Below, piece by piece: positions 10,899 through 45,142 of a stretch of DNA of 64,000 nt (its first letter is position 1; every line of letters starts with the position of its first letter). A program made the position numbers and the translations under genes. This DNA is from an uncultured archaeon. GTDB lineage: Archaea; Thermoproteota; Nitrososphaeria_A; Caldarchaeales; Calditenuaceae. Below the pieces are notes generated by a model that did no database searches, had not been told where the DNA came from, and saw only the letters and a list, made by a program, of their open reading frames with translations. The stretch is from NCBI GenBank assembly GCA_937921685.1, contig CAKZUF010000007.1:55384-119383 (forward strand), in the 5' to 3' direction.

Positions 10899-11386
10899 GG
10901 CCTAAACACCTTCATAAGGGAGTCCAGCGTGTATAATAGGGCGAAGACGGCCAGCGATATGCTCAGCCAGAAAAGCGCTCTCTGCTTGGAGCTAAATGAG
11001 GGAGGAGGCGAGAAGGGCTCCGGCCTCCTCGGGCGACCTAAAGAAAAACCAAAGTGGGCCAGCACTAGTCGGATGCCATTTATTGTGTGGAGGGCCACTA
11101 AAAATCCTACCACGGCAAGTCCTGCGTCAAATATGGGGTTTTTCAGTAGTTTGACAGTCTCTTCATAAGCCCTCTCAGCAAAACTATAATCGGGGACGCT
11201 CCAAACTGTAATTCCGCCGACAAAATTCCCTGTCTCTAACACGTGTGCAATGAAATATAGAGAGACCACCACCCCGCTAACTCTTTGCAAAACATAGCTC
11301 CACCGCTCAAGACCGTATCTTCCAGGGATCAGCATTACCTTCAGTGATTGGATAACTGAAGATCTACTCACACCCCGAGCCAACAT
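10895..11386 (-). CDS. sdhC: succinate dehydrogenase cytochrome b subunit (SdhC-like)
   Basis: Hydrophobic 163 aa overlapping the sdhD start; sits in the SDH operon context. Confidence 0.55.
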   Translation of the reverse strand: MLARGVSRSSVIQSLKVMLIPGRYGLERWSYVLQRVSGVVVSLYFIAHVLETGNFVGGITVWSVPDYSFAERAYEETVKLLKNPIFDAGLAVVGFLVALHTINGIRLVLAHFGFSLGRPRRPEPFSPPPSFSSKQRALFWLSISLAVFALLYTLDSLMKVFRP

Positions 11387-11476
11387 TTCTAGTGCTTAGC
11401 TAAGGCTTCAAAAATATTTTTCCGATACGCAGCGCTGAATAGCTAATATAATACTACCTCACTCTTTTAGTCGGGG

Positions 11477-12316
11477 TTGGAGCCTTCTTTAAAGACTACC
11501 AGGCTAGTTATGACTGTTGTGGAGATTAGGGACGAGACAGACGTGTGCAAAACCTATAGGTTTGTGAGCGCTCTGAACCAAGACATCTTCCCATACCTGC
11601 CAGGCCAAGATGTAAAACTCTACTTTGACACCCCTCTCAAGAAAAATGACTTTAGACTTTACTCGATAGCCACTCCACCCACCAGGAAAGGGTACATGGA
11701 GCTGACAATTAAGAGCGAACAAGGACAGTTTGCACCCTACTTTCTCTCCCAAGCAAAGGTCGGCGACCAATATGTTATTGAGGGGCCCTATGGGCGTTTT
11801 TTAAGCAAACCCCTAAAAATGATCGAGAACAAAGAGCTTGACACGCTAGTATTTCTAGCATCCTCGAGCGGCATAGTGCCCTTCCGCTGCTTCATAGAAT
11901 ACGCAATTGATACTGGACTAGACGTAGATATCTGGCTATTCTACGTAAACCGTACACGTAAAGACTTGATCTACCGCCAGCTATTACCAGCTCTATTGGA
12001 GGAGTATCCCAAGCTAAGGCTGCTCCTAAACTTCACTAGAGAGCACGAGATAGCTAAGACAGAGCTCTACGAATCGGTCTGTAACGTAAAGGACGAGCTA
12101 AAGGATAGGGTTGATTTCCTGCTAGGCAGGCGGCTAGAGTTTAGCGATATCGCATCGCGAGTTGAGAAGTGGAAGGATGCCTGGTATGGCATATGTGGAG
12201 GGGCAAAGTTTATTGCGGGTGACAGGCAGCTGGGACAGGACGGAATGATGCAGAAGATCGAGAAAGGCGGTGTAGGGAGGAGTAGGATAGAGATCGACTC
12301 CTACGGAACCAACTAG
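11477..12316 (+). CDS. FAD/NAD(P)-binding oxidoreductase of the ferredoxin-NADP reductase family
   Basis: RLYSIAT (RxYS FAD-binding motif) and a GPYG motif. No C-terminal Fe-S cysteine cluster. Confidence 0.55.
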   Translation: MEPSLKTTRLVMTVVEIRDETDVCKTYRFVSALNQDIFPYLPGQDVKLYFDTPLKKNDFRLYSIATPPTRKGYMELTIKSEQGQFAPYFLSQAKVGDQYVIEGPYGRFLSKPLKMIENKELDTLVFLASSSGIVPFRCFIEYAIDTGLDVDIWLFYVNRTRKDLIYRQLLPALLEEYPKLRLLLNFTREHEIAKTELYESVCNVKDELKDRVDFLLGRRLEFSDIASRVEKWKDAWYGICGGAKFIAGDRQLGQDGMMQKIEKGGVGRSRIEIDSYGTN

Positions 12317-12336
12317 AACGATATAGAGAATATTAC

Positions 12337-13227
12337 TTAGGTGGCGGGTCTTCCGTAAAGTGATTTTATTCCAAGCCAAGTTGAAAGTATTTCCCCAAAT
12401 AGATATGTTGCTGCGGCAGTCCCCAGTGTTAGTGCTATGTTCGTTATGATTTCCTTACCTGACTCTACATCCCTTACAACAGCTCCATAGTATGTAAAGC
12501 CAGCTATTAGCGTGATTGAAACTGCTATAGAGGCTGTAAATGCTGTGAAAATATCGGATGTCAGGAAGAATGGCAGTGCTTGGAGGATTACTGTTGAGAT
12601 GTAGGTTATCCCAGTTAGTAGTGCCGCCCTAAAAGGAACTATCGCTGGCGCTTGTTTTGCTTGAAGGTATACCGCTACCGCCATTGATATTGAAGCTGCA
12701 AAGCCGACGACTAGACCGGCCATGCCTGCCAGAATGGTCACATTGGTGGCGCCCAAGAAGCCTGCATGAACTCCGCTGATCTCGATTATAGCGTCTGCAA
12801 GCCCCAAAACCACGTAGCCCAAGTATTTGATAATGTTCTCCTCAATCTGCCCGATGAGCATTTTTTCATGTTCTTCCTCCTCCCTCATTATGTGAAAGAG
12901 TGTCTCCCTCTCCTTAGGAGGGAGGGCATCGCTGAGCTCTCGATACCACCTAACCACTGATCTCTCATGCCTCTCCAAGAGCCTAGCTATGAAGACCAGG
13001 CCCAGCAGTCTTCTAAGCAATACTATTAGCCCGATCCTAAGCCTTGAAGGGGGCTTAGGCTGATGATTCGTGAGTTGAAGCCAGAAGATATAGTGTTCGT
13101 ACTCTTTTTGGGATAGGTTTGAAAGTATCTCTCTACGTGAAGCATCCCTCTCCACATCTGCGAGTGACTTATAGATGACGTAGTCGTTAAATTCATCTAC
13201 AACGTACTTCCTTAGCTCTGACTTCAA
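12337..13227 (-). CDS. ferritin-like/rubrerythrin-like domain fused to a VIT1/CCC1 iron-manganese transporter (MbfA-like)
   Basis: N-terminal E-x-x-H ferritin-like helices (EYEHYIFW, EEEHEKM) followed by five TM helices of the VIT1 type. Confidence 0.7.
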   Translation of the reverse strand: MKSELRKYVVDEFNDYVIYKSLADVERDASRREILSNLSQKEYEHYIFWLQLTNHQPKPPSRLRIGLIVLLRRLLGLVFIARLLERHERSVVRWYRELSDALPPKERETLFHIMREEEEHEKMLIGQIEENIIKYLGYVVLGLADAIIEISGVHAGFLGATNVTILAGMAGLVVGFAASISMAVAVYLQAKQAPAIVPFRAALLTGITYISTVILQALPFFLTSDIFTAFTASIAVSITLIAGFTYYGAVVRDVESGKEIITNIALTLGTAAATYLFGEILSTWLGIKSLYGRPAT

Positions 13228-13290: not shown

Positions 13291-13749
13291 ATGCCAGAAT
13301 GGGAATATTCTGTGAAAGGGCTGGACCCTGCCACCTCAGTTAAAGCCTCCCTCAGGGAGGTTGATCTATCTCCGAAGTGGAGCAGGGAGGTATGTGCAGC
13401 AATAAGAGGGATGAGGCTTCAAGATGCTAGGAGGCTTCTTGAGGATGTGGTGAAGAGAAAAAGGATGATACCATACCGGCGATACAGGAAGTTGAGGGCA
13501 CACCACTCGCAGACAAAGGGGCCTGGAGGATACCCTGTTAAGGTTGCGAAACATCTACTCAAACTTTTAGACTCTCTAGAGGCTAACGCAGAGTTTAAGG
13601 GCCTAGACACGGACCGGTTAGTGTTGGTGCATGCTCAGGCACATAAGGGGAGGGTAGTGAAGAAGTTTTTCCCCAGAGCTTTTGGTAGAGCAACACCACA
13701 TAATAGAACACTTGTACACATAGAGATAGCTGCGGTCCAAGCTCCTTGA
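13291..13749 (+). CDS. rpl22: 50S ribosomal protein L22 (uL22)
   Basis: Sequence and position at the head of the L22-S3-L29 block. Confidence 0.85.
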   Translation: MPEWEYSVKGLDPATSVKASLREVDLSPKWSREVCAAIRGMRLQDARRLLEDVVKRKRMIPYRRYRKLRAHHSQTKGPGGYPVKVAKHLLKLLDSLEANAEFKGLDTDRLVLVHAQAHKGRVVKKFFPRAFGRATPHNRTLVHIEIAAVQAP

Positions 13750-13804
13750 ACCTCTTCTGACGGATCAATCCTTAAATAGAGTGAGAAGTGCTCAATGAGG
13801 TAGA

Positions 13805-14428
13805 TTGGTCACTACGACGGCTAAAATGCTTCAGAAGAACATCAAGCGTGGTGAGGTAATAGAATTCATCAAGAACCGTCTGAAGGACGCCCTTATTGGT
13901 GACGTGTCAATAACCACCTCGCCAATCGGGACAAATATCATAATCTACTGCATGAAGCCGGGGCTTGTTATAGGGACGCGTGGTAAAACGATAAAATCTC
14001 TCCAAGAGGAGGTGGAGAGGAGGTTTGGACTTGAGAATGTACAAATATCTGTCTCCGAGATTGAGGTCCCTGAGCTCAACCCTGAGGTTATGGCTCAGCG
14101 GATAGCCCAAGCCATCGCGAGCGGAGTTAGATGGCGAAGGGTTGCCTTCTGGGCTTTAAGAAGGATAATGGACGCCGGAGCGATTGGCGCAGAGACGATA
14201 ATATCTGGAAAACTAACCTCGGCTCGTTCAAGGTCAGAGAAATTCACTGCAGGGTTAATGCCCAAGTCTGGCGAGTTCACAAAGTACGTCCGGGTAGGGA
14301 TAGCCCACGTCCAGCTTGCTACGGGGATATACGGTGTGAAGGTTAAGATATATCCGCCTGATGCCCCATTGCCTGAGCAAGTCTCTGTATCCGTGAAAAA
14401 GGAAGTAGAGGAAGCTGGTGGTGGGTGA
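13805..14428 (+). CDS. rps3: 30S ribosomal protein S3 (uS3)
   Basis: KH-like N-terminus and GVKVKI motif. Confidence 0.9.
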   Translation: MVTTTAKMLQKNIKRGEVIEFIKNRLKDALIGDVSITTSPIGTNIIIYCMKPGLVIGTRGKTIKSLQEEVERRFGLENVQISVSEIEVPELNPEVMAQRIAQAIASGVRWRRVAFWALRRIMDAGAIGAETIISGKLTSARSRSEKFTAGLMPKSGEFTKYVRVGIAHVQLATGIYGVKVKIYPPDAPLPEQVSVSVKKEVEEAGGG

Positions 14429-14637
14429 GTATGGTGAGAGAGGTCAGAGAGCTGAGGGAGAAGAGTGTCGAAGAGCTGAGGGAGGAGCTTGAGGCTGCGC
14501 GTACAGAGCTCCGCAACCTTAGAGTCAAACTATCGATGGCGGGTCAAGGCGAAAACACTTCAAACATCCGAAATCTCAGGAGGAGAATAGCGAGGATACT
14601 GACAATACTTAATGAAAAACAGCTTGAGAAGAAATAA
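14425..14637 (+). CDS. rpl29: 50S ribosomal protein L29 (uL29)
   Basis: REVRELREKSVEELREELEAARTELRNLR. Confidence 0.9.
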   Translation: MSMVREVRELREKSVEELREELEAARTELRNLRVKLSMAGQGENTSNIRNLRRRIARILTILNEKQLEKK

Positions 14638-14917
14638 AAGAATCGTTTCACTCATCGGATACCGCTGTACTGCGACCAAAAAGTCCAACGGCACTCGTTT
14701 CGAGGGCTTGATAATAGGGGAGACCGCCAACACGGTTCTAATACAGACTCGGAAGGGAACGAGGCGCATCTCAAAGAAGGAGCATCTCTTCGAGATTGAG
14801 GTTGAGGGGGTGAGGTTAATCGCTAATGGGGAAGAGCTAGTGGGGATGCCTGCACAGAACCTTAAACGGATTCGACATAATTGGCTTAAACGTCCCTCGA
14901 GGGGGTTGGAGACCTAG
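14612..14917 (+). CDS. rnp1: RNase P protein component 1 (Rpp29/Pop4 homolog)
   Basis: LIGYRCTATKKSNGTRFEGLIIGETANTVLIQTRKG; conserved position between L29 and S17. Confidence 0.8.
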   Translation: MKNSLRRNKRIVSLIGYRCTATKKSNGTRFEGLIIGETANTVLIQTRKGTRRISKKEHLFEIEVEGVRLIANGEELVGMPAQNLKRIRHNWLKRPSRGLET

Positions 14918-14975
14918 TGTTTATCCTTATTAAAACGGATATTGCTCTGATTTGTAAAAGGCTGGCTGAGCAGGG

Positions 14976-15329
14976 ATGTCTGGGAGACAGGCTGCGAACA
15001 TAGGCATCGAGGTTAAGCCACCACAGGCCGAGTGTGATGACGAGAACTGCCCGTTTCACGGCTCACTAAGGGTGAGGGGTATTATTCTCACGGGGAGGGT
15101 TCATAAAAAGCTTATGCAGAGGGCTATAGTTGTGGAGAGGGTTACGACCATTTACGTCAAGAAGTATAAGAGGTATATGAGGAGGCGGTCGAGGATCTCG
15201 GCACATCTACCACCATGCATTAATGTGGAATTGGGCGATGTTGTAAAGATTGCGGAGACTAGGCCTATTTCGAAGACCATTAGTTTTGTAGTTATTGAAA
15301 ACCTAGGGAGGGGTGGGGTAAGTGTCTAA
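14976..15329 (+). CDS. rps17: 30S ribosomal protein S17 (uS17)
   Basis: CDDENCPFHGSLRVRG N-terminus. Confidence 0.9.
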   Translation: MSGRQAANIGIEVKPPQAECDDENCPFHGSLRVRGIILTGRVHKKLMQRAIVVERVTTIYVKKYKRYMRRRSRISAHLPPCINVELGDVVKIAETRPISKTISFVVIENLGRGGVSV

Positions 15330-15756
15330 GAGATCAAGGGCGGTTGCTGAGGTAGGCGTTCTGCTTCGGAGACCAAACATCCCTAGGACCATTAATAAAG
15401 GAGCATACGTGCTTTGTGCAGATAACACGGGTGCGCAGGTTCTCAAAGTCATTCAGGTGATTGGTCTTAAGCAGAGGCTTCGAAGGCAGCCGGCTGCTGG
15501 GGTAGGCGACCTAGTGGCAGTAACTGTGAAGAAAGGTCCCATCGACTTGAGGAAGAAGGTAATGCACGCCGTCATCATTAGGCAGAAGAAGCCCTATAGG
15601 CGCCCAGATGGGACTTGGATTGTCTTCGAGGACACCGCAGCCGTCCTTGTGACGCCCGAGGGTGATGTAAAGGGCTCTGAGATTAAGGGACCGGTTGCAC
15701 GAGAGGCGGCTGAGAGATGGTCGAAGATAGCAAATATCGCGTCAATAATAGTGTGA
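15322..15756 (+). CDS. rpl14: 50S ribosomal protein L14 (uL14)
   Basis: LCADNTGAQVLKVIQV. Confidence 0.9.
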   Translation: MSKRSRAVAEVGVLLRRPNIPRTINKGAYVLCADNTGAQVLKVIQVIGLKQRLRRQPAAGVGDLVAVTVKKGPIDLRKKVMHAVIIRQKKPYRRPDGTWIVFEDTAAVLVTPEGDVKGSEIKGPVAREAAERWSKIANIASIIV

Positions 15757-15763
15757 TGGTGAG

Positions 15764-16132
15764 GTGATGAATCAGGTGTCGCGGACAAAGGATCCTTCTA
15801 AGCAGAGGCTCATGATACGTAATGCTCCGAAGCATATCCTCCCCAAGCTAATGTCGGCTCACCTCGCTCCAGAACTGAGGGCAAAGTATGGGAGGAGGTC
15901 TCTCCCAGTCAGGGTTGGGGATACTGTGAAAGTGATGCGGGGCGAATATGATGGTGTCCAAGGAAAGGTTAAAAGAGTCAATAGAGAGAGGCAATTAGTG
16001 TATATTGAGGGTCTTACGAGGAAGCGTGCCGATGGAAGGGTTGTAGACATACCTGTCCACGCATCAAATCTAATGATTATAGCTCTGAATCTCGACGACA
16101 GGTTTAGGAAAGAGAAGTTGGGTGAGGGATAG
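15764..16132 (+). CDS. rpl24: 50S ribosomal protein L24 (uL24)
   Basis: KOW motif VRVGDTVKVMRGEYDGVQGKV. Confidence 0.9.
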   Translation: MMNQVSRTKDPSKQRLMIRNAPKHILPKLMSAHLAPELRAKYGRRSLPVRVGDTVKVMRGEYDGVQGKVKRVNRERQLVYIEGLTRKRADGRVVDIPVHASNLMIIALNLDDRFRKEKLGEG

Positions 16133-16137
16133 GGGTT

Positions 16138-16854
16138 ATGCATCTGAAGAGGCTTGCCGCACCAAGTGTTTACAAAATCCCTAGAAAGGGATACAAGTTC
16201 GCCCCGAGGCCAAAACCTGGCAGACACCCACTAGAGGCGTCCATACCGCTCGCAGTTATAGTCAGGGATTATCTGGGCTTTGCCGCAACTTATGCGGAGG
16301 CGAAGAAAATCATCCACTTAGGCAAGGTCCTAGTTGATGGAGAGGTTATAACTGAGCCGAGGTTTGGTGTTGGGCTTATGGATGTAATCACAGTTCCCTC
16401 AGTGGGGAAAACATATCGCGTGCTGCCCCGCTTCAAACGGGGCTACGAACTCCTAGAGATCGCTGAGGATGAGGCAAATATTAAGCCTTGCCAAGTGAAG
16501 CGTAAACAGCACGTAAATGGTGGCAACATCCAGTTCACTCTACACGATGGTAGGAATCTACAGTTTCCTCCTAACAGCCCCGAGACCAGCTCAATCAGGA
16601 CTGGAGATACATTTGTGATAGAGTTGCCAAGTCAGACAGTAAAAGCAGTTATCAAGAGAGTTGAGGGGGTATACTGTCTGATCACCTCGGGCTCTAGAAT
16701 GGGGCTTCACGGGAGGCTTGTCTCGATGGATGCCGAGAGGAGATACCCCGCTAAGAGGCACGCTGTAATAGAGTCCAGCATGGGTCGGATAACTACTATA
16801 CTCGACTACTTCATGCCTGTTGGTGAGGATAAGCCATGGATAGCGCTATTCTAG
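16138..16854 (+). CDS. rps4e: 30S ribosomal protein S4e (eS4)
   Basis: MHLKRLAAPSVYKIPRKGYKFAPRPKPGRH. Confidence 0.9.
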   Translation: MHLKRLAAPSVYKIPRKGYKFAPRPKPGRHPLEASIPLAVIVRDYLGFAATYAEAKKIIHLGKVLVDGEVITEPRFGVGLMDVITVPSVGKTYRVLPRFKRGYELLEIAEDEANIKPCQVKRKQHVNGGNIQFTLHDGRNLQFPPNSPETSSIRTGDTFVIELPSQTVKAVIKRVEGVYCLITSGSRMGLHGRLVSMDAERRYPAKRHAVIESSMGRITTILDYFMPVGEDKPWIALF

Positions 16855-17360
16855 AGAATCCTATGCGTAGAATCAGGGTAAGCAAGGTGGTTGTCAACTC
16901 TTCCATCGGAGAGGGGGGAGTAAAGCTAGAGCGGGCGGTAAAGATACTCGAGATGCTGACCGGTCAGAAGCCGTCAGTCAGAAAGGCGAAGAAGACTATC
17001 CGCGGATTTGGGATAAGGAAGGGGGAGCCGATTGCCGCGGTAGTTACATTGCGGGGTATGAGGGCGGTGGAGTTTCTCCGAAAGGCCTTAGCGGCTGTAG
17101 GTAATAGACTGTCCCGCGACAATTTTGATGAGTACGGAAATTTTGCTTTTGGCATAAAAGAGCATCTCGAGTTTCCGGGTACGAGGTACGATCCCGAACT
17201 AGGGATAATCGGAATGGACATTATAGTGCACCTAGCTAGGCCTGGACTAAGGGTCTCAACGCGACGGATTAAACGGTCGCGGATTGGCAAATCCCACCGG
17301 CTTACCCGCGAGGAAGGGATAGAGTTCGTCAGAAACGAGTTTGGGGCCCAGATAGATTAA
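16836..17360 (+). CDS. rpl5: 50S ribosomal protein L5 (uL5)
   Basis: NPMRRIRVSKVVVNSSIGEGG... typical uL5. Confidence 0.9.
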   Translation: MDSAILENPMRRIRVSKVVVNSSIGEGGVKLERAVKILEMLTGQKPSVRKAKKTIRGFGIRKGEPIAAVVTLRGMRAVEFLRKALAAVGNRLSRDNFDEYGNFAFGIKEHLEFPGTRYDPELGIIGMDIIVHLARPGLRVSTRRIKRSRIGKSHRLTREEGIEFVRNEFGAQID

Positions 17361-17426: not shown

Positions 17427-20060
17427 ATGATATATACGGCGATGCACCGTGGCCTAGGCAGTCAGATGGGATACTGGGGCGCCGGCACTCTGATAGTCCT
17501 TCTTCTATACACCATAATATGGGCAGGGCTGTCCTTCCCCAACATTGAGACCTACCGAATCCAGTACGACGGGGTTGGCGACAGCGCACTGCAAGGATTC
17601 GAGTTATCTATTGAGGAGAGCATCGAGATTATTGGGGGTTGGAGCAAGTCTACCCTAACAGTCCTCATTGTACCAAGCGTAGACGAACGTCTAACGAGTT
17701 GGGCCGGCAGGGCTGTCGACTGGTGGAGGAGAGCTAAAGAGACCTTCACGGCACTTTACGGCTACGAATATTTAAACAGGCTCGAGTTTGTGAAGCTTGT
17801 CCGAGGCATAAACGGCACGTCGGGTGACATCGTCGTAGAATATGTGGAAAGCCTAGGAGAGCGGATATGCGGGCAAACCTATATCATCGCACAAAATGGA
17901 GAGATTAGATACGCATCAGTTCAACTATCGCTAGAATGTATCAGAGGCCGGGAAGAGTATGCACTGGTAGTTGCAATGCATGAGCTTGGCCATGCGCTGG
18001 GGATAGGGCATACTACCAACTCTAGAGACTTGATGTATGCATACCTGGTCCCTGGCTCCAGGCCCTCCACGCTAAATCTCTACGCCTTAGCAGTGATCTA
18101 CGCATGGCTTGATCGGGGAATTTTCAAAAGCCCCCCAAACACGGTGACCCTGCCGTCGGGCATGGATTATATCCAGATTCTGGACGTGAACGGAGAGCCC
18201 GTCAAATTCAGGATAAGAATTTACCTGCTACTTAGAGATAAAGAACTCCTCTACAGGACAATATTCGTACCTGCCGGCCAGAGCTTCACCATAAACGTCA
18301 ACACGATGATCCAAGACGCGGACGACGCCTGGGCGAGGTACGTCTTCACCGGTTGGAGGATTAGAGGGTCAGATCAAACACTATATACAAGCACTTCTAT
18401 AACTCTCAAGCCAACCGGTCACGCAGACTATATCGCCGTCTATGATGTAGAATACAGGCTTGTCGTTGAATATCCCAACGGAACCATTCTCGACGACTGG
18501 ATAAGAAGGGGTAGTAGGGTATCAGTTAACGCAACAGAATTGATCTATCTATCTGTTGATGAGAGGCTGGTCTTTGTCGGGTGGAGTGGCGCGATAAACA
18601 GCACCAGCATTAGGCTTGAGCTTATCGTGGAGTCGCCTATTTACCTGTACGCGGTTTATAGAAGGGAATTCCTGGTCGAGGTTGCATCCGACTTTGGAGA
18701 GCCCTCAGTCTCAGGCTGGTGGCCGGAGGGAACGCTCCTCAACATAACCATCAACCCCAGCATCGTATACCTCTCCGAAGATGCTAGAATTGTGCTCAAT
18801 GGATTCAACGGCTCCCATTCAGCTTCAACACCTTACCTGTTGATCAACCTGACAGAGCCCGTACACCTCTCTGCGGTCTGGAAAGCGCAGTATCTTGTGA
18901 CGATCAGGAGCCTGGGAGGGGAGCTACACGAACACATATGGGCTGACAACGCGTCCAGAATAACAGTCACCGTGCCCAGAGAGATCCTCTGGGATAATAG
19001 GTCAAAGGCTGTCTTCACGCGATGGCTAAACCCAGATCTGTCCTCAGAGCCCACGCAGAGTCTGACAGTTACCGGTCCTAGATTCTTAGCCCCGTTGTAT
19101 GAGAGGTATTATTTCGTAGAAGTTGTTTCCACTGTGAAGGTCGACGCGCCGACTAACTGGTATAGGCGTGGGGAGGTCTTTGAGCTAGTGGTCCCCAGCT
19201 CGGTTGAGCTGGATGAAGGGTTGAGGGCCGTATTACTCGGAACCTCCGAAGGGGCTGAGGATACACTAAGGTTTGTAGTCCAGTTGCCAAAGACCATAAT
19301 ACTGTATTGGAGAGAGGAGGCGCGGATAACGATTAAGAATCCGACGATAGGGGTGGATAAAATAATCTGGGCCCCAATAAACCAAGTCATCTATCTGGAC
19401 ACACCTTCCATAATACATGTTAGCTCGGGGGAGGCGTATGAGTTCGTCAAATGGGCCGGCGGGGTCGAGTCCAGAGAAAGGACAATTTCGATCACGGTTA
19501 ATGGAAGCATCGAGCTCAGACCCGAGTATAGGAGAGTATATCGCGTCGCGTTTAACACCATACCTTCACTCAATGTCGAGTTATTGCTTCAAGAGACGTC
19601 GGGCAGGCTCTACAGGGTGCGGAGTGGTGAGTCGGCCTGGCTGCCGGAGGGGCGCTTAGTAATTCTGGGGGTGTACTGGGAGGGGCTCGAGGTTAAGAAT
19701 GCTTCCAAAGTATATGTAAACGGATCGGGCGCCTACCAAGTTAAACTAGCCGTGAGAAGCTTAGACGTTGAGGTCCTAGACATGCTCGGATTACCCGCAC
19801 CCTTCTACGAAGTCCAAGCCCTCCGCTCGGATGCCGTTATAGAATCCCGCGCCATTTCAGATTCTGCTGGACTGGCTAGGCTAAGTGCCGTCAGCTCATC
19901 GATAAGCGAGGTAGGGGCTAGATGGATGGTTTTTGAGACCTTCGCGAAGCCGGAGCCGCAGAGAGTACAGGTCAGGGTTCCAGTAAGCTTCTATACCCTT
20001 CTCCTAGCATCCACAATATTGATCGCCACATCTGCGATACAGGCTTATAGGCGGTTCTAG
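17427..20060 (+). CDS. membrane-anchored matrixin-like (metzincin) zinc metalloprotease with repeated beta-rich domains
   Basis: N-terminal TM/signal-like segment. [11 protein letters not shown](x7)LMY is an HExxHxxGxxH zinc site plus Met-turn. At least five repeats with an F-x-GW...Y-x-x-x-Y-R pattern. C-terminal TM helix ([17 protein letters not shown]) followed by a short basic tail. Confidence 0.6.
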
Positions 20061-20485
20061 CGCCTCGGTTTCTTAGCCTTACCCAGCACAAGCAGCTTTA
20101 GAGGAACGCCGTTGACGGTGACGACCTCGTACCTAACCCCTGGCAGGTCGCCGTAGCTCTTGCCCAAAGTCCCTCCTATCCCCTGAATAATCACCTCATC
20201 ATGCTCGTCAACCACGTTCAGGGCTCCGTCGCCGGGCAGGAAGGCGGTTACAACCTTCCCATTCTTCGTCAGCTGCACCCTGACACACTTCCTAACAGCG
20301 CTGTTCGGCTGCCGCGACTCTATTCCTTTCTTCTCGATCACGATTCCCTTCGCCATGGGTGCGCCCTCTAAGGGGTCGAACTTCTCCTTGAGGTTGAGCA
20401 TCCTAATCTTGTATCGTCGCTGACTCCACCTAAACCTCTTCCTAACCTTAATCAGCTGCCTCGCCGCGAACTCCCCATTCCCCAT
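20057..20485 (-). CDS. rps12: 30S ribosomal protein S12 (uS12)
   Basis: [28 protein letters not shown] is canonical S12. Confidence 0.9.
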
Positions 20486-20766: not shown

Positions 20767-21345
20767 CTACCCGAGGGCCTCTCTAGCGCCGGATAAGATA
20801 TACTCGATTGCGATGGCGGCCAATATAATGGCCATTACGCGTGCAACGACATCGGCGCCTACCTTTCCCAAAATCCGGTGGAGAGTCTCTATGCTTCTGA
20901 GAGTGATCCAGCTTAAGAGCATCACTATTAACACAGAAGTGATTGCCACGAGCTGTCCTGACGTGTTTATGGTTATCATGGTCGTGGTTATTGCTCCTGG
21001 TCCTACGAGCAGTGGGAAGCCTATGGGAAAAACACCCACATCTCCGGTCTTTGCTAGAAGCTTCTCACCTCCATAGACTAGGATTTGAAGGGATAGAAAG
21101 AGGAAAAGGATCCCACCAGCAATCTTAAAGCTGTGAAGGGAGACGTTAAAGAGTGAGAGGATCTGGTGTCCCGCAAAGGCGAAGAGGAGTAGAAGCGCAG
21201 ACCCAACCATTGTAGCGAGATTGAAAACTCTTTTACGATTATCCGAGCTGAGACCACGGGTAAGCTCGATGAGTATCGGAATATTCCCAACAGGGTCCAC
21301 AACCACAAAAAGGACGATGGTGCTCTTCAGAACCTCCTCTATCAC
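20767..21345 (-). CDS. MarC/UPF0056 family integral membrane protein
   Basis: Six-TM profile with the conserved DPVGNIPI motif near the N-terminus. Confidence 0.7.
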   Translation of the reverse strand: MIEEVLKSTIVLFVVVDPVGNIPILIELTRGLSSDNRKRVFNLATMVGSALLLLFAFAGHQILSLFNVSLHSFKIAGGILFLFLSLQILVYGGEKLLAKTGDVGVFPIGFPLLVGPGAITTTMITINTSGQLVAITSVLIVMLLSWITLRSIETLHRILGKVGADVVARVMAIILAAIAIEYILSGAREALG

Positions 21346-21422
21346 GACATAGCAGGTACTGAGATTACTATGTAACCCTTAATTTGATGGCTAAATAGAG
21401 GAGTATCAGGGTATCAAGTGCT

Positions 21423-21496
21423 GCCCCGGTAGCTCAGCCAGGTAGAGCGGCCGCCTTGTAAGCGGCAGGTCGCGGGTTCAAACCCCGCCCGGGGCT
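21423..21496 (+). tRNA. tRNA-Thr (anticodon TGT), no intron
   Basis: GCCCCGG-TA-GCTC-AGCCAGGTA-GAGC-G-GCCGC-CTTGTAA-GCGGC-AGGTC-GCGGG-TTCAAAC-CCCGC-CCGGGGC-T folds as a canonical cloverleaf. Confidence 0.8.
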
Positions 21497-21597
21497 TATT
21501 TCCACGAGTTTTCCCCCGAAGCCATACTGCTGGACCGCTCTGTCTTCCACGGTACTGTTTAAATCCTCTCGAATGTGCTTGATAGTATGAGGGCTCG

Positions 21598-22563
21598 ATG
21601 CCAATACTTGTTACTGGTGCGTGTGGCTTCATCGGTGCGTGGACTGTGAGGCGGCTGTTAGAGCTGGGCGAGAAGGTGGTTCTGACCGATGTTTCAGGCG
21701 ACTTAACCAGGCTTAGATATGTTGTTGACGGGGCTGACAGGCTTCCATTCGTTAGGGGCGATATTGTTGAGGAGGGCTTCATAGAGAACATAGTTAAGAG
21801 CTACGGTATTGACGCTATAATCCATCTAGCCGCCTTTCAGATCCCCCAATGTAGGGCAGATCCTGTGAGGGGGGCGCTCGTGAACGTGATAGGCACTTTA
21901 AGGGTCTTCGAGGCGGCTAAAAAGAATCGCGACACTGTTAGACGTGTCGTCTATGCGAGCTCGGCCGCCGTTTTCGGGCCCCCGGAGCTTTACGGTAAAG
22001 GCCCAGTACCGGTTAACGCACCTCTAAAACCTACAACCCATTATGGCGCCTACAAGGTATGCAACGAGCTGACAGCAAACGCCTATTGGCATGAATCTGG
22101 CATTCCAAGTGTCGGTCTTAGACCACAGGTAGTCTACGGTTATGGGCGTGATGTCGGTGTGACTTCTGACGCCTCCCGAGCTATAAAGGCAGCTATAGCC
22201 CGTAGGCCCTACAGGATAAGGTTTGGCGGTTTGATAGATATGCAGTATGTGGAGGATGTGGCGCACCTGTTTGCCGTCTCTGCAATTAAGGACCTAGATG
22301 GGGCCCGAGTTTATAACGTCCGGGGAGACGTGATAAGCGTCGCACAGCTTGTGAAGCTTATAGAGGAGGCCACGGGCGTAAGCGGGCTCATAACGTTTGA
22401 GGATAAACCCCTACCCATTCCCGCCTACTTGGACGACTCTGAGACAGAGAGGGATCTAGGCCCCCTCAAGAAGACTCCTGCACGGGAAGGAGTAGCGAAG
22501 ACTGCGGAGTTTTTCCTCGGGCTCCTGAAGCGCGGCGAGCTGGATCTCAGCGACCTTACCTGA
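21598..22563 (+). CDS. NAD-dependent epimerase/dehydratase (extended SDR family)
   Basis: VTGACGFIGAW Rossmann motif and the YGAYK catalytic YxxxK. Confidence 0.75.
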   Translation: MPILVTGACGFIGAWTVRRLLELGEKVVLTDVSGDLTRLRYVVDGADRLPFVRGDIVEEGFIENIVKSYGIDAIIHLAAFQIPQCRADPVRGALVNVIGTLRVFEAAKKNRDTVRRVVYASSAAVFGPPELYGKGPVPVNAPLKPTTHYGAYKVCNELTANAYWHESGIPSVGLRPQVVYGYGRDVGVTSDASRAIKAAIARRPYRIRFGGLIDMQYVEDVAHLFAVSAIKDLDGARVYNVRGDVISVAQLVKLIEEATGVSGLITFEDKPLPIPAYLDDSETERDLGPLKKTPAREGVAKTAEFFLGLLKRGELDLSDLT

Positions 22564-37330: not shown

Positions 37331-37505
37331 CTGGACCCCTTATAAGGAGTGAGGTATTTAATCCTCCCCCCATCGACAAGTTTTTGAGGTAGACCGCTCT
37401 ATAAAGTTCTACGCAAATGCATGTAAAAATATGCAAAAAACTCGGCGAAAGAGGAATCAGTGTTGCATATTGCGGTTAATGCTTTCTCAGCTATATTATT
37501 ATGCG

Positions 37506-38990
37506 ATGGAAGGTTCTTGGACTAGATTCTGCAGCGTCTGCACCGTCCTATTACTCAGCTTAGCTATTCTAGCAGCGGCAGCCTATGCTCAGCAGCAAAT
37601 TGTTTACGCTGACGTTCCAGGGAATCCGCCGCCTGGTGCCACTCCTAATAAGCGATTCCTCCTAATCACGTCGGAGAATGACGTCCTTATAGATGATGGC
37701 GTTGTCTTCAGGGCTTGGACCTTTAACGGCACTGTTCCGGGCCCTCTCATCTTGGTGGAGGAGGGTGATGTGGTTGAGATAGAGATCAAGAATGAGGGCA
37801 AGTACACGCATGGCGCCTCCATACATGCTGCAAACACGCAGACATCCCTCTTCGTCGGCAGCATCCCGCCAGGAGAGTCGCGAAAGCTTGTCTTCAAGGC
37901 CGACTTCCCAGGCGTCTACATGTATCACTGCGCGCCGGGAGGCCATGGAATCCTAACCCACACACTTGCCGGGATGTATGGGATGATAGTTGTTGAGCCA
38001 AAGACGGTAAAGTATAGGCTGGAGGAAAGGCTTGGAAAAGAGCCGGACATAAAGGTCTTCCTAGTTCAACACGAGGTCTACGCTAATGGAAAAGACTTCA
38101 CAGATGGTAAGCCTATCTATGTACTGTTCAATGGAAGGGTGTTCCGATATTTGACTGAGCCGATCAAGGCACGTCCAGGAGACTACGTCAGGTTCTATTT
38201 CCTAAACGTGGGTCCGAATCTGGTGGCCAGCTTCCACGCAGTGGGCGGGATATGGGAATACGTGTACCACGGCGGCAACCCAAACAACGTTGAGGAGGGG
38301 CTGCAGACAGTTACTGTGGGGCCGACAGACTCTTATGTCGTAGAGTGGCGGGTGCCCTCCGAGGGGAACTTCCTACTGGTGACCCACGCCTTCGGGACCC
38401 AAACACTCAAGGGCGCCGCAGGCTATCTCTCAGCCAAGGTCGACAACGTGCGGGATAGCCTTATCCTGCCGCAAGGGCCGCAACCGCCCTCGCAAATCCA
38501 AGGAGCCAAGAGGGTTGTAGCCCCCTTCGAGCCGACCGGCGAGGACTTAGGGACACCAGTGATATTCTATCCCGGACAGACGATCGTGGTGAGGATTGTG
38601 GGCAACAGCTTCTACCCCAAGGTTGCACGGGTACCAGTCGGCTCGGAGGTTGTCTGGGTGAATGAAGACGTCCTGAGCATTGGGTCGGGTGAGGTCACGG
38701 GCCAGCACAACGTGGCCACAGTCTCCGGGCCTGAGACCTTCGCATCAGACTTGCTGAAAAACGCTGACAGATTCACATATACGTTCAGTAAGGAGGGAGA
38801 GTATAACTACATATGCGGCATACACCCATACATGAAGGGCTCAATAGTTGTGTACAAGGCCGCGGCAATCGCTGGCGCCGGACCTACTGTAGATCTGACA
38901 GCATTACTGGCTTTCCTCATAGGTCTGGGGGTCGTCGTATCAGTTCTCAGCCTTGGACGAGGGGGACGAGCACAATTAAGAGTTAAATGA
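37506..38990 (+). CDS. NirK-type two-domain copper oxidoreductase fused to a C-terminal cupredoxin domain and TM anchor
   Basis: Signal-like N-terminus. TFNGTVPGP. H-x4-H-A-A (THGASIHAA) and YHCAPGGHGILTHTLAGMYGMIVV, which resemble the NirK HNIDFHAA and YHCAP...H...M type-1/type-2 Cu ligand blocks. A C-terminal YICGIHPYMKGS small blue copper site. Terminal hydrophobic helix. The ORF track's upstream extension to 37431 is probably not translated. Confidence 0.55.
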   Translation: MEGSWTRFCSVCTVLLLSLAILAAAAYAQQQIVYADVPGNPPPGATPNKRFLLITSENDVLIDDGVVFRAWTFNGTVPGPLILVEEGDVVEIEIKNEGKYTHGASIHAANTQTSLFVGSIPPGESRKLVFKADFPGVYMYHCAPGGHGILTHTLAGMYGMIVVEPKTVKYRLEERLGKEPDIKVFLVQHEVYANGKDFTDGKPIYVLFNGRVFRYLTEPIKARPGDYVRFYFLNVGPNLVASFHAVGGIWEYVYHGGNPNNVEEGLQTVTVGPTDSYVVEWRVPSEGNFLLVTHAFGTQTLKGAAGYLSAKVDNVRDSLILPQGPQPPSQIQGAKRVVAPFEPTGEDLGTPVIFYPGQTIVVRIVGNSFYPKVARVPVGSEVVWVNEDVLSIGSGEVTGQHNVATVSGPETFASDLLKNADRFTYTFSKEGEYNYICGIHPYMKGSIVVYKAAAIAGAGPTVDLTALLAFLIGLGVVVSVLSLGRGGRAQLRVK

Positions 38991-41601: not shown

Positions 41602-41775
41602 ATGGGGGTTAAGGAGTTCGCCAGATCAGTCATTACGGTGTTTAGGGTCGCTCAAAAGCCCACCAAAGAGACGTACCTTACTTTTGCGAGAATAACCCTG
41701 ATCGGGGTGCTATTACTTGGCGTCATATCTTTTCTCGTCAGGTTCCTAATGATAGCCCTCCAAGGTGGAGTGTGA
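41602..41775 (+). CDS. secE: preprotein translocase subunit SecE/Sec61-gamma
   Basis: 57-aa ORF MGVKEFARSVITVFRVAQKPTKETYLTFARITLIGVLLLGVISFLVRFLMIAL with a single TM. Conserved position upstream of spt5. Absent from the ORF track because it is under 60 aa. Confidence 0.65.
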   Translation: MGVKEFARSVITVFRVAQKPTKETYLTFARITLIGVLLLGVISFLVRFLMIALQGGV

Positions 41776-42248
41776 TGAGCCAGGCTGAGAAGAAGTTTCA
41801 GATCTTTGCAATAAGAACCACCGTGGGGCAGGAAAAGAACGTGGCAAGGCTACTCTCAAACAGGATTGACATCGAGGCAGGGGATATAGCTTCGATATTC
41901 ATTCTGCCAATGCTAAAGGGTTACGTGTTTATAGAGGGGGTGGATAAGGACCGAATAGCACTCCTCACCCAAGGGATGATGCATGTCAAATCGAGGCCGA
42001 TCACAGCCGTCTCTATAGAAGAGTTAAAGCAACATATTGTCGAGAGGCCCGTGATTGAGACTATTAACGAGGGAGAGATGGTCGAAGTTATTGCTGGACC
42101 ACTTAGAGGTGTGACTGGCAAGGTGCTTCGCATCGACAGGCAGAAAAACTCAGTCACGATAGAGTTAACCGAGAGTATCTATCCGCTCCCAATCTCTGTC
42201 CCGGCTCGACAACTCAGGCCGATTCGGCAGCAGCAGGAGACCCGCTAA
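41772..42248 (+). CDS. spt5: transcription elongation factor Spt5 (NusG)
   Basis: NGN domain (IFAIRTTVGQE) and KOW motif (GEMVEVIAGPLRGVTGKV). Confidence 0.85.
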   Translation: MMSQAEKKFQIFAIRTTVGQEKNVARLLSNRIDIEAGDIASIFILPMLKGYVFIEGVDKDRIALLTQGMMHVKSRPITAVSIEELKQHIVERPVIETINEGEMVEVIAGPLRGVTGKVLRIDRQKNSVTIELTESIYPLPISVPARQLRPIRQQQETR

Positions 42249-42278
42249 CCCTCCCTCGAGATTTTTCAAGTATTTATT

Positions 42279-42806
42279 GTGGATTCTGAATGGGGATTAA
42301 GCGTGGCTGAAAGGACGTATAAGTTCGTAGTAGAGGGCGGTAAAGCGACTGCAGGCCCTCCTATAGGGCCTACACTCACGCCACTCGGAATTAATGTACT
42401 ACAGCTTATTGAGGAGATAAATCGAAAGACCGCGGAGTTCAAAGGCATGCACGTCACCGTGATCGTGAAAGTAGACTCCGATACTAAGTCTTTCAGCGTT
42501 GAGGTAGGCGTACCAACCACCATAGCCCTCATCGCCAAGGAGGCGGGCATTGAGAAAGGGTCGAGCACAGCCCATAAACAGCCTGTAGGAGACCTCTCAG
42601 TGGAGGGTCTAATTAAGATCGCGAGGCTGAAGATGGAGCAGCTAAGGGCTACTTCCCTAAAGGCGGCAGTGCTCTCCGTGGCCGGAACATGTGTAAGCAT
42701 GGGAGTAACAATTGATGGAAAGGATCCAAAGGAGTTTATAGAGGAGGTCAGGATGGGTAAATATGATGAATTGCTCTCCGCTGCTACCTCTTCTTCTCAG
42801 GCTTAA
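42279..42806 (+). CDS. rpl11: 50S ribosomal protein L11 (uL11)
   Basis: GGKATAGPPIGPTLTPLGINV. The true start is probably slightly downstream of 42279. Confidence 0.85.
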   Translation: MDSEWGLSVAERTYKFVVEGGKATAGPPIGPTLTPLGINVLQLIEEINRKTAEFKGMHVTVIVKVDSDTKSFSVEVGVPTTIALIAKEAGIEKGSSTAHKQPVGDLSVEGLIKIARLKMEQLRATSLKAAVLSVAGTCVSMGVTIDGKDPKEFIEEVRMGKYDELLSAATSSSQA

Positions 42807-43449
42807 TCTTAATCGGCGGGCTCATGCTTAACTTCAAGACGATAGACTTGACGTTAGCCCACCCGTTTTCAAGTCTTGAAACAACCCTCTCGATCACAGC
42901 CCTAGCATTATCCAATAACTGATCTACACTCATATCCTCTGTACCCACAATGCACATTACCTGCGGAACCTTACGCACCCTAGCTACAACGGTCCTCCTA
43001 TACCTCGCAGCAAACTCGTCAATATCCACGTTGGCCGGTATTGGTATAGGTGTCTTCCCCACGCCTCCGAGTGCTGCACCGAGTGCGCGCGCAGCCACGG
43101 GGACAAGCTGAGGCTCTATTAGGAAGTAGTCGAACTCTCTTACAAGCCTCTTTGCTGCCTTCTTATTCCCCACCAACCCTTCTATTTCCTGTCTTTCAAA
43201 GACCCTGTCAACGTTTTGAGACCTAGACGCCCTGAGAGCAAGTTCACCAGTGGCTATAACAGCTATACGCTTGGAGGCAGAGCCAAGCCCGTGGGGCAGC
43301 TCTATCATTTCGCTGAAACGCTTCTCGGGCTTACTCACATCAACATCCTTCAAGTTTATCACAAGCTCTACCGCTTGAGTGAAGTTCCGCTTCACCCTCT
43401 TCTCCAGCACCTCACGAACTCCTCTTTCCAAGTCTATGACAGTAGACAT
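42784..43449 (-). CDS. rpl1: 50S ribosomal protein L1 (uL1)
   Basis: RNFTQAVELVINLKDVDVSKPEKRF...LPHG. On the opposite strand to L11 and L10. Confidence 0.85.
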   Translation of the reverse strand: MSTVIDLERGVREVLEKRVKRNFTQAVELVINLKDVDVSKPEKRFSEMIELPHGLGSASKRIAVIATGELALRASRSQNVDRVFERQEIEGLVGNKKAAKRLVREFDYFLIEPQLVPVAARALGAALGGVGKTPIPIPANVDIDEFAARYRRTVVARVRKVPQVMCIVGTEDMSVDQLLDNARAVIERVVSRLENGWANVKSIVLKLSMSPPIKIKPEKKR

Positions 43450-43505
43450 CCTTAGTAAACGACCTAATTGCTGTCTAATAGGTTTATAATCGAGTGGCGG
43501 AACCC

Positions 43506-44264
43506 CTATATCTCCAGCAGCAACTCAGGATCCTTTAGTGTCTTGATCTTGTCCTCCTCGCCCTCAATTAGCCAGCTCATCCAGCAGAGCTCCGTGGGCC
43601 GGAAACCGATCTTCTCACAAATCTCGGTGACGCCCTTGATGAACTCCATATCCTTCTCAAATGGTTTAAGGCCTGAACCCGCTAGTAGCCTGTTTACCAC
43701 CCTCTTCACCACCCTATCAGGCATCAAAGTGTCGACCCCGCCCATCATCCTGAGATACTGGTACGTAACGAGCCCAACCCCGTTTATGGAGCCTATAGGG
43801 TCGCGCCTCCAATTATGAAGGCTTGATTGGGATGCCCAGATTCTCAGGGCCTCTCTATCACCCCGTCCATATCTGGTCAGAGCCGCGGCGATGTCCTTGG
43901 CGGCTTGCCAGGACCGCGTATTCCTCCAAAGATATCTAACCCTCCTAATGTCTAGGCGAGCGAGATCTCGTAGATGTTTAACTTCTCCCTTTTCCACGAA
44001 TCTCTTCGAAAAGAACTTCACTCGCGGAACCACTACATCGAAGTAGCTTAGACCACTTGAGGTCAAGGCGGCGTCAACGACCATGAGGACAACGCTCCCA
44101 CCCCATCGCTCTGTCCTAAGACACCTATCACACACTTGTTTAAGATTTGGGAGGCTGGATGTGATCCTCAAAATCTTCTCTCTCAGCAGGTCTAGGCTGC
44201 CCAATCCATACCTTGACGGGGGCTGGATGGAATTTAAATAGTTGGCTAAATTAGCATTATTCAA
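43506..44264 (-). CDS. hypothetical protein with an HhH-GPD-like segment, possibly an archaeal DNA N-glycosylase (AGOG-like)
   Basis: INGVGLVTYQYLRMMGGVDTLMPDRVVKRV resembles the helix-hairpin-helix/GPD pattern L..GVG..TA......G.......D.HV.RV. Its size (252 aa) is similar to Pa-AGOG. Weak. Confidence 0.35.
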   Translation of the reverse strand: MNNANLANYLNSIQPPSRYGLGSLDLLREKILRITSSLPNLKQVCDRCLRTERWGGSVVLMVVDAALTSSGLSYFDVVVPRVKFFSKRFVEKGEVKHLRDLARLDIRRVRYLWRNTRSWQAAKDIAAALTRYGRGDREALRIWASQSSLHNWRRDPIGSINGVGLVTYQYLRMMGGVDTLMPDRVVKRVVNRLLAGSGLKPFEKDMEFIKGVTEICEKIGFRPTELCWMSWLIEGEEDKIKTLKDPELLLEI

Positions 44265-44269
44265 AAGTC

Positions 44270-45142
44270 ATGGTCAGGGCTGCTCTGTTGCTGAGGCCGA
44301 GGGAGTACAAGGCCAAGCGTGTAGAAGAGTTGAAGAACATGTTCAAGACCTACCGCGTGATAGGTTTTATAGACCTTTTCAGGTCTTCAGCAGATCTTAT
44401 CCACCTCTTCCGGAGCAAGTTTAGGGGACAGGCCGTCATCAAGGCGGCTAGAAAGACGCTGGTGATAAGGGCGGCTAAGGAGGCTGGGAGAGAAAAAATA
44501 GCGGAATATATAGAGAAGGAGAAAAGACCCTTCGCGCTCATCTTCACCAACATCAACCCCTTCATCCTGAAACTCGAGCTCGATAAAGGTAAAGTTCTCA
44601 CACCACCCAGGCCTGGTGAGACAGCGGATATAGACGTAGTTGTCCCGCCAATCAACACAGGTCTGCAGCCTGGCCCCATACTTTCAGAGTTCGGGAAACT
44701 CAAGATACCCACAAGAATAGAGGGTGGGACTATATGGATTGCCAGGGAAACTACCGTTGCCAGAAAGGGTGACGTGATCCAGCCAACCCTGGCATCACTC
44801 CTCGCAAAGCTAGAGATAGGCGCTGTTTATCGAAGCATAAACCTCCTTGTAGCTTTTGACGGTGACTTGATCATTCCTTCCGAGCTTTTAACCATTGATG
44901 TTGAAGGAACTAGAAGGATGCTCTCTGAGGCCCACTCCACGTCCCTAGCTCTTGCAATAGAGGTTGGATACGCGGCGCCAGAGACAATTGTTCCGATGAT
45001 AGTGAGGGCATACCGCTCAGCCATTAGCGTCTCTCTTGCAGCGGGCTACACAACCAAGGAAACTATAGAGATCCTGCTCGCAAAGGCCGTCTCAGAGGCA
45101 GCTACGCTTCAGAGGGTTGTAGATTCTCGATCAGTCTCTTGA
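44270..45142 (+). CDS. rpl10: 50S ribosomal protein L10 (uL10, acidic P0)
   Basis: KAKRVEELKNMFKTYRVIGFIDL N-terminus. The C-terminus lacks a long acidic tail. Confidence 0.8.
   Translation: MVRAALLLRPREYKAKRVEELKNMFKTYRVIGFIDLFRSSADLIHLFRSKFRGQAVIKAARKTLVIRAAKEAGREKIAEYIEKEKRPFALIFTNINPFILKLELDKGKVLTPPRPGETADIDVVVPPINTGLQPGPILSEFGKLKIPTRIEGGTIWIARETTVARKGDVIQPTLASLLAKLEIGAVYRSINLLVAFDGDLIIPSELLTIDVEGTRRMLSEAHSTSLALAIEVGYAAPETIVPMIVRAYRSAISVSLAAGYTTKETIEILLAKAVSEAATLQRVVDSRSVS

Follow-up and report, generated by a model that had tools for sequence, protein, structure and literature searches.

A predicted stalked, membrane-anchored matrixin-type metalloprotease beside a truncated ribosomal protein cluster in Caldarchaeales

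In archaeal genomes the gene for ribosomal protein L5 is usually followed by those for S14, S8 and L6. In a stretch of 64,000 nucleotides from an uncultured hot-spring archaeon of the Calditenuaceae (Caldarchaeales; contig CAKZUF010000007.1; 'the window' hereafter), rpl5 ends at position 17360 and is followed instead by an unbroken open reading frame (ORF) on the plus strand, at 17427-20060. The original prediction, made from the DNA letters, had taken its product for a matrixin-type metzincin with internal repeats and a membrane anchor, and its position for a break point in the spc operon. What is this protein, and does the ribosomal neighbourhood say anything about its function? The answer that we consider likely is a type I anchored, probably N-glycosylated extracellular zinc endopeptidase, borne on a stalk and expressed from its own promoter, with peptide supply as the role that we favour. 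Residue numbers below follow the long ORF, and the features are collected in Table 1.

The catalytic assignment starts from an HExxHxxGxxH site at residues 185-195, followed by LMY at residues 202-204. We aligned 20 family members, with identities down to 29%: H185, E186, H189, G192, H195, D201, M203 and Y204 are invariant in all of them, M203 standing eight residues after H195, and the first five of these positions are likewise invariant in seven shorter relatives that consist of the catalytic domain only. The window protein matches the Pfam family Peptidase_M10 (Matrixin, PF00413) with 29.6 bits against a cut-off of 24 (E 7.6e-7), and all 20 members exceed the gathering score of this family. 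The reprolysin, astacin and M66 families of Pfam stay below threshold for the window protein, and NCBIfam returns weak matches to fragilysin and archaemetzincin. Among PDB sequences MMP-1 matches best (E 6e-5); its HELGHSLGLSHSTDIGALMY aligns without gaps over the zinc motif and Met-turn.

Fold comparison points the same way. The AlphaFold2 model of the whole protein has a mean predicted local distance difference test score (pLDDT) of 84, and of about 90 for residues 63-235. In a Foldseek search against the PDB, the catalytic domains of MMP-3, -7, -8, -1 and -2 and of bacterial karilysin were matched with probability 1.0, at target-normalised template modelling scores of 0.55-0.65. The twisted beta-sheet, active-site helix and C-terminal helix by which a metzincin fold is recognised are all found in the model. 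A matrixin-type metzincin, far beyond a chance HExxH, is therefore supported. The matrixin-like site first read from the letters is borne out by the invariance of its residues, the Pfam match, the MMP-1 alignment and the Foldseek matches, and the objection that no metzincin profile would match falls with the Peptidase_M10 score.

How close is this domain to the MMPs? The spacing of the HExxHxxGxxH site and the Met-turn is that of the MMPs (MEROPS M10A, PF00413) and of karilysin from Tannerella forsythia, and the SGDIVVEY strand of the window protein recalls, as we assume, the G-x-ADIMI strand of MMPs. Several parts typical of MMPs are absent, however. The PRCGxPD cysteine-switch prodomain is one of them: the cysteines of the window protein all lie inside the catalytic domain, and only 22 variable linker residues precede it, in a region of low model confidence (pLDDT below 50 for residues 31-62), so there is no Cys-switch prodomain, and latency control, if there is any, must differ. 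MMPs also carry an S-loop with structural Zn (three His and Asp) and Ca sites. Here, only 8 residues connect the model strands 135-140 and 149-156, and no His besides the three catalytic ones is invariant in the 20 homologues and the seven shorter relatives; the S-loop thus appears to be missing, to judge from model and alignment. The window protein has no hemopexin domain. Where MMPs have Ser directly after the third His, 90% or more of the members have Thr196, while P0028 and P0030 have Ser; fragilysin likewise has Thr directly after its third His. Unlike the MMPs, the family carries a signature helix of its own, located after the Met-turn and present in the shorter relatives too. The only cysteines of the protein, C148 and C171, are invariant in the 20 homologues; the first lies where one strand begins, the second just past the end of its hairpin partner, and a stabilising disulfide between them is plausible.

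Other known proteases are less similar. Snapalysin (M7), the small neutral protease of Streptomyces, has an HExxHxxGxxD site in which Asp is the third ligand. It is a small, secreted, single-domain minimal metzincin, whereas the window protein is stalked and has His as third ligand; no match to the snapalysin family of Pfam was found for the window protein at E <= 10. The archaemetzincins (M54) are small and cytosolic and have an extra Cys4 zinc site, unlike the window protein, which scores 14.1 against a cut-off of 145 with the NCBIfam archmetzin model. A Calditenuis-type locus, L008, encodes a separate archaemetzincin of 170 amino acids (aa) (Peptidase_M54; 14713-15225) about 4 kb from the stalked protease, so such genomes carry both types of metzincin. 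Pyrolysin and STABLE (of the Staphylothermus tetrabrachion stalk) are envelope-bound, but are serine proteases of the subtilisin type, not metzincins.

The family can be followed well beyond the window. The full-length relatives, 853-915 aa long, fall into about 30 clusters; all come from metagenome-assembled genomes of Nitrososphaerota/'Aigarchaeota', and several are named 'matrixin family metalloprotease' by NCBI. We scanned one genome per GTDB species with two signature-peptide patterns: full-length matches occurred in Caldarchaeales only (Calditenuaceae, Calditenuis, Caldarchaeum and 'archaeon HR02'), catalytic-domain-only matches occurred in Bathyarchaeia and Nitrososphaerales, and all matches of the scan were archaeal. 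A word-index search with the catalytic domain gave 7 matches, and it was an exhaustive profile search that revealed the size of the family, with 77 clusters at E <= 1e-30 and 458 at E <= 1e-10 (50% identity representatives). These catalytic-domain relatives are mostly 210-350 aa long, some reaching 600-1260 aa, and the short ones also have N- and C-terminal hydrophobic segments. With hundreds of clusters, matrixin-like domains of this type are not rare in Thermoproteota; that they were rare in archaea, as first supposed, was overstated in view of the 458 clusters and the archaeal-only scan matches.

Within the full-length family, the head is the most conserved part, with a mean pairwise identity of 0.58 (0.51 when the window protein is compared with the deep clade), against 0.33-0.44 for the stalk domains; domain number and individual domain lengths hardly vary. 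In the literature on Aigarchaeota metalloproteases and on archaeal MMP/karilysin proteins we found no paper on this protease family; the one metalloprotease mentioned in a paper on Aigarchaeota genomics is Rpn11 (PMC6053391). The kind of protease and its automatic annotation were already known. What is new is the stalk architecture and the minimal core.

The stalk begins with six homologous repeats, delimited by pairwise hhalign comparison (R1 258-339, R2 340-411, R3 412-485, R4 486-559, R5 560-629, R6 630-702). Comparing the profile of residues 245-850 with itself gave off-diagonal shifts of about 78, 151, 225, 298 and 368 residues, with E-values from 5e-46 to 6e-6. When the repeat region was divided within the long strands that link the domains of the model, and the sub-profiles were compared pairwise, R2 to R6 proved interrelated at E 1e-10 to 5e-20, and R1 more divergent. 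The repeats seen originally (five or more, of about 90 aa) are real and amount to six copies, but the period has to be corrected to about 73 aa. Of the two patterns by which they had been noticed, F-x-GW is the core of the unit and Y-x-x-x-Y-R-(L/V)-x-V-E the strand that joins one domain to the next.

Scans of Pfam and NCBIfam gave nothing significant for the window repeats or the two domains that follow them: the repeats do not match PF18998 (Flg_new_2, 'divergent InlB B-repeat') at E <= 10 and match TIGR02543 only at E 0.28. The link to Flg_new_2 was made through orthologues, a bridging protein and fold comparison. PF18998 is matched by 5 of the 20 orthologues (best P0028, 27.5 bits against 23.6). 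P0034, an otherwise unrelated repeat protein, aligns to the whole repeat array (E 4e-14), and its PF18998 domain (residues 33-105) aligns to R1. The fold of the repeat model is similar to that of a solved B-repeat (2y5p) and of related MucBP domains. The InlB B-repeat/Flg_new_2, MucBP and SHIRT domains of Gram-positive surface proteins are tandem beta-rich modules of about 70 aa, as here. In fold, the repeats are closer to this beta-grasp-like InlB B-repeat/MucBP class than to a generic beta-sandwich; the surface repeats of the original prediction thus stand as a type of stalk, but not in their fold. As for the two domains that follow, residues 703-777 reach an hhalign probability of at most 18% against R1-R6, and residues 778-850 show no detectable homology to R1-R6 and probably form a transthyretin-like/CarboxypepD_reg-like domain.

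Both ends of the protein are hydrophobic, as had been noted, and have equivalents throughout the family: all 20 members start with a hydrophobic segment and end with a transmembrane helix followed by a tail rich in Arg and Lys, and none has an internal segment of transmembrane-like hydropathy. In the window protein, Kyte-Doolittle hydropathy peaks at 2.0-2.15 over residues 17-40, and the model has a helix at residues 16-32. Hydrophobic termini, a basic tail and an uninterrupted body together suggest a type I membrane protein, with an 810-residue body outside and the catalytic head distal to the membrane. The window protein contains 12 N-X-S/T sequons, two of which, N129 and N524, are kept in 19 and 20 of the 20 members respectively; the ectodomain is probably N-glycosylated.

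Where does the gene start, and is it transcribed with rpl5? A database protein 100% identical to the window protein, P0001, is 864 aa long and begins at Met14 of the long ORF, as do all close homologues in the alignment. We aligned the spacer between rpl5 and the protease gene with those of six related loci (L010-L014 and L004). The ATG at 17427 is not kept: L010-L013 have CTG, CTG, TTG and no start codon in its place, and in L010 a frameshift separates the positions of the two ATGs; the ATG at 17466 is retained in L010-L012 and L014 and is probably the true start. An 8-mer at 17430-17437 reads ATATATAC, TTATATAC or ATTTATAC across the relatives, between flanks that diverge, and in the form ATATATAC it overlaps the region of the ATG first taken as the start. 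An archaeal TATA box serving a very short leader is expected about 33 nucleotides upstream of the start codon. The 8-mer is thus a putative TATA box, which most likely implies a promoter of the gene's own and a very short or absent leader. The unconserved first ATG, the conserved second one and the conserved 8-mer together place the gene most likely at 17466-20060, under its own promoter. A scan for bacterial-type promoters and terminators gave counts at the level of shuffled sequence. The distance to rpl5, originally given as 66 bp, is confirmed by the ORF coordinates for the ATG at 17427 and becomes 105 bp for that at 17466. The G+C content of the gene (0.50-0.51) is that of its surroundings and so gives no pointer to a recent foreign origin.

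Table 1. Coordinates in the window of the protease gene, the parts of its product and the two flanking ribosomal protein genes
Feature	Position	Strand	Remarks
ORF as first called	17427..20060	+	877 aa, final stop within coordinates
Likeliest coding sequence, 864 aa, from Met14 of the long ORF	17466..20060	+	P0001 and close homologues start here
TATA-like 8-mer ATATATAC	17430..17437	+	~33 nucleotides upstream of conserved ATG 17466; putative archaeal TATA box
N-terminal hydrophobic segment, aa 14-40; predicted Sec-type signal peptide or signal anchor	17466..17546	+	hydropathy
Variable, probably disordered linker, aa 41-62	17547..17612	+	no Cys; mean pairwise identity 0.21
Catalytic domain, aa 63-235	17613..18131	+	minimal MMP-like metzincin fold
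Zinc motif H185-E-L-G-H189-A-L-G-I-G-H195-T and Met-turn D201-L-M203-Y204	17979..18038	+	invariant in 20 homologues; PF00413
Six homologous ~73-aa repeats, R1-R6	18198..19532	+	divergent InlB B-repeat (Flg_new_2)/MucBP-like stalk domains
Seventh all-beta domain, aa 703-777	19533..19757	+	pLDDT ~84-90; no Pfam match
Membrane-proximal beta-sandwich, aa 778-850	19758..19976	+	probably transthyretin-like/CarboxypepD_reg-like (PF13620)
C-terminal transmembrane helix, aa 853-871, short basic tail QAYRRF, stop	19983..20060	+	hydropathy; model helix aa 855-876
rpl5 (uL5), last gene of truncated L22...L5 cluster	16836..17360	+	Pfam Ribosomal_L5 and L5_C in orthologues
rps12 (uS12), convergent	20057..20485	-	PF00164, E 3.5e-44; 3' end overlaps protease stop by 4 nucleotides

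We picture the working of this protein as follows. Transcribed from its own TATA-like promoter, outside the abutting ribosomal operon, it would be exported by the Sec pathway and then held in the membrane by the C-terminal helix (residues 853-871), with the basic tail inside. A stalk of eight all-beta domains (six InlB-B-repeat-like, one beta and one transthyretin-like) would lift the catalytic head off the membrane by some tens of nanometres, as a rough estimate, to or beyond the cell envelope. There H185, H189 and H195 would bind the catalytic Zn, E186 would be the general base that polarises the water, and M203 would form the Met-turn beneath the metal site; a disulfide between C148 and C171 would steady a domain without the structural Zn/Ca S-loop of animal MMPs. 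The role that we favour would be extracellular protein breakdown at the cell surface for peptide supply, a suggestion by analogy with other stalk- or envelope-borne proteases of thermophilic archaea. For the Caldarchaeales ('Aigarchaeota'), which are largely uncultivated, the gene offers a concrete candidate for proteolysis at the surface. If active, the enzyme would be a thermostable, minimal MMP-like protease without structural-metal loop or prodomain, a simple model of the metzincin core and possibly a useful enzyme.

Several observations weigh against this picture. The PF00413 match in the window protein spans residues 178-208 alone (31 residues); relatives from the same catalytic subfamily match the profile almost in full (P0103 at positions 2-158 of 159, P0045 at 2-139), which bridges the short match and argues for homology over the full domain. 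All structural claims rest on AlphaFold models built from 15-20 sequences. If Met14 is the start, the n-region of the N-terminal segment contains no Lys or Arg in the sub-clade of the window protein. The nutritional role gains no backing from a linked peptide transporter, none being present at the loci examined. Finally, the order-wide, apparently vertical conservation and the fixed architecture fit a housekeeping function in the envelope equally well.

Could the same molecule, then, maintain the envelope rather than feed the cell? It is possible that we are dealing with a membrane-tethered processing protease or sheddase for the maturation or turnover of envelope proteins (S-layer, pili, other surface proteins), the stalk being a spacer of fixed length that would hold the active site at a set height within the envelope, by analogy with membrane-type MMPs and ADAMs; considered as a role, this is nearly as likely as peptide acquisition. 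The constant domain count and near-constant length (853-915 aa) across Caldarchaeales, down to 29% identity, speak for it, since the number of repeats usually differs among adhesins and among nutritional proteases. So do the strong conservation of the catalytic domain between deep clades (0.51 identity) and the position of the gene, which is stable within each lineage, as expected for vertical inheritance. However, no substrate or partner gene is linked to it in any of at least five contexts, a nutritional protease that reaches past an S-layer would need a constant stalk length equally, and the spread within the order is known only from the scan with two peptide patterns. The architectural likeness to the membrane-type MMPs and ADAM sheddases of animals is an analogy and presumably convergent: their spacers are hemopexin, disintegrin or Cys-rich domains, unrelated to the InlB-B-repeat-like ones found here, and they have a prodomain, which the window protein lacks.

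A bolder form of the same idea seems to us rather improbable. The protein would be an order-wide, vertically inherited archaeal 'membrane-type MMP', a housekeeping sheddase or maturase whose fixed eight-domain stalk acts as a molecular ruler that puts a minimal MMP-like head without prodomain at one defined envelope layer, and together with the short, signature-bearing relatives in Thermoproteota it would represent an archaeal branch of MMPs independent of any transfer from animals. Such a branch, if true, would be relevant to the origin of the matrixin fold. The Thermoproteota do have their own sizeable clade of MMP-like domains, which bears on the debate whether all MMP-like enzymes of prokaryotes were recently acquired from eukaryotes.

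The anchor itself can be read in another way. A juxtamembrane motif, V-R-x-P-x-S-x-Y (residues 848-857; 19968-19997), stands directly before the C-terminal transmembrane helix, with R850 and Y856 present in at least 90% of members. Conserved motif, helix and the Arg/Lys-rich tail of all members follow one another in the three-part arrangement that is usual for sortase, exosortase and archaeosortase signals. The C-terminus might be a sorting signal of this kind, which an archaeosortase-like enzyme would cut off, leaving the protease attached to lipid or envelope, or released. We regard this as improbable: the last 42 residues match no CTERM sorting-domain model of NCBIfam (PGF-/PEF-/VPXXXP-CTERM) even at E <= 10, the motif occurs in no other ORF of the window although such a signal should recur, and no archaeosortase candidate was seen in the window. 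Apart from this question, only one other ORF of the window, of 519 aa (37431-38990, plus strand), ends in a transmembrane helix and a basic tail (LLAFLIGLGVVVSVLSLGRGGRAQLRVK); it has no motif in common with the C-terminus of the protease and may encode another anchored surface protein.

The type of stalk raises the question of whether the anchored protein is a protease at all. InlB B-repeat, MucBP, SHIRT and SraP domains are typical of bacterial fibrillar adhesins, and the metzincin-like head could be a catalytically dead binding module at the tip of such an adhesin; but this is very unlikely, given that the three His, the Glu, the turn Gly and the Met are invariant in the family and in the catalytic-domain-only relatives and that the head is the most conserved domain.

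It remains to ask what the ribosomal neighbourhood means for the stalked protease. The order L22-S3-L29-Rpp29-S17-L14-L24-S4e-L5, protease, convergent S12 and MarC is kept wherever the protease is 43% or more identical to that of the window, and no locus with a protease of 34% identity or less has the L5-protease-S12 arrangement. For orthologues at 30-34% identity there are at least four other contexts, most of them non-ribosomal: in one, a TrmI-like methyltransferase gene lies upstream of the protease gene and that of chorismate synthase downstream, and in another, diphthamide synthase is encoded upstream and a convergent S2 gene follows downstream. An all-against-all comparison of neighbours at 11 distant loci found no gene shared between contexts, be it inhibitor, chaperone or transporter.

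The break after L5 is also found with other genes at the junction. A Caldarchaeum genome retains the canonical order L5-(S14)-S8-L6-L32e-L19e-L18-S5-L30-L15-SecY; another aigarchaeote has histidinol dehydrogenase (hisD) after L5, and a third lineage a reverse-strand family-B DNA polymerase (PolB), with S14 stranded 4 kb away. In the window, no obvious S14-S8-L6 turned up when the ORF list was inspected. Within Caldarchaeales, then, gene order has broken repeatedly at the L5|S14 junction; documenting this is a minor aspect of the locus. Since distant orthologues of the protease lie elsewhere and L5 is followed by other genes at other breaks, the adjacency is a lineage-specific rearrangement junction and not a functional link. 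The claim of an spc-operon break point was right in that the cluster stops at L5, yet the break recurs with other genes and is a scar, not a linkage; and the objection that close relatives might keep the gene at a different, non-ribosomal locus holds in part, for the linkage only, the adjacency to L5 being lineage-specific and lost at 30-34% identity. Across the loci that share the arrangement, identity is 92-100% for S12 and 70-98% for L5 but 43-84% for the protease, which evolves much faster than its neighbours, as expected of a surface-exposed protein.

A functional tie to the ribosomal cluster, by co-transcription with rpl5 or by action on ribosomal or translation factors, is the least credible explanation of all: the gene does follow rpl5 at 66-105 bp on the same strand, convergent with rps12, in an arrangement kept by all relatives at 43% identity or more, but at 30-34% the orthologues are found in four or more unrelated contexts, the conserved start has a conserved TATA-like box ahead of it, the protein bears export and anchor signals as well as glycosylation sequons, and the L5|S14 junction is broken elsewhere with hisD or PolB as the neighbour.

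Some further observations concern the surroundings of the gene. The ribosomal cluster (13291-17360, plus strand) is also truncated upstream: it begins at L22 (13291), and L3-L4-L23-L2-S19 are missing upstream. A reverse-strand VIT1-family gene and succinate dehydrogenase-like genes lie 5' of L22 (12337-13227, minus strand upstream). The start at L22 is common to all related loci, including that of Caldarchaeum with its L5-S8-L6...SecY order. On the other side, rps12 is solitary, with no S7/EF-2 genes downstream and no NusA/RpoA genes upstream, and adjoins a MarC-family gene (20767-21345, minus strand). One related locus, L009, has two extra genes between rps12 and marC (11293-12600; JGI Ga0074074_11932) that occur neither in the window nor in the other loci; one of them encodes a LAGLIDADG_3 homing-endonuclease-like protein of 244 aa. 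The only tRNA gene of the window, tRNA-Thr(TGT), is found at 21423-21496 (plus strand), and a minus-strand ORF of 125 aa that overlaps it (21414-21791) is probably spurious. Elsewhere in the window, the Spt5(NusG)-L11-L1-L10 cluster (41772-45142) has its L1 gene (42784-43449) on the minus strand, between L11 and L10/P0 on the plus strand. A minus-strand ORF of 252 aa stands beside L1 (43506-44264) and has no Pfam match at E <= 1e-5. The orientation of L1 looks like the result of a local inversion.

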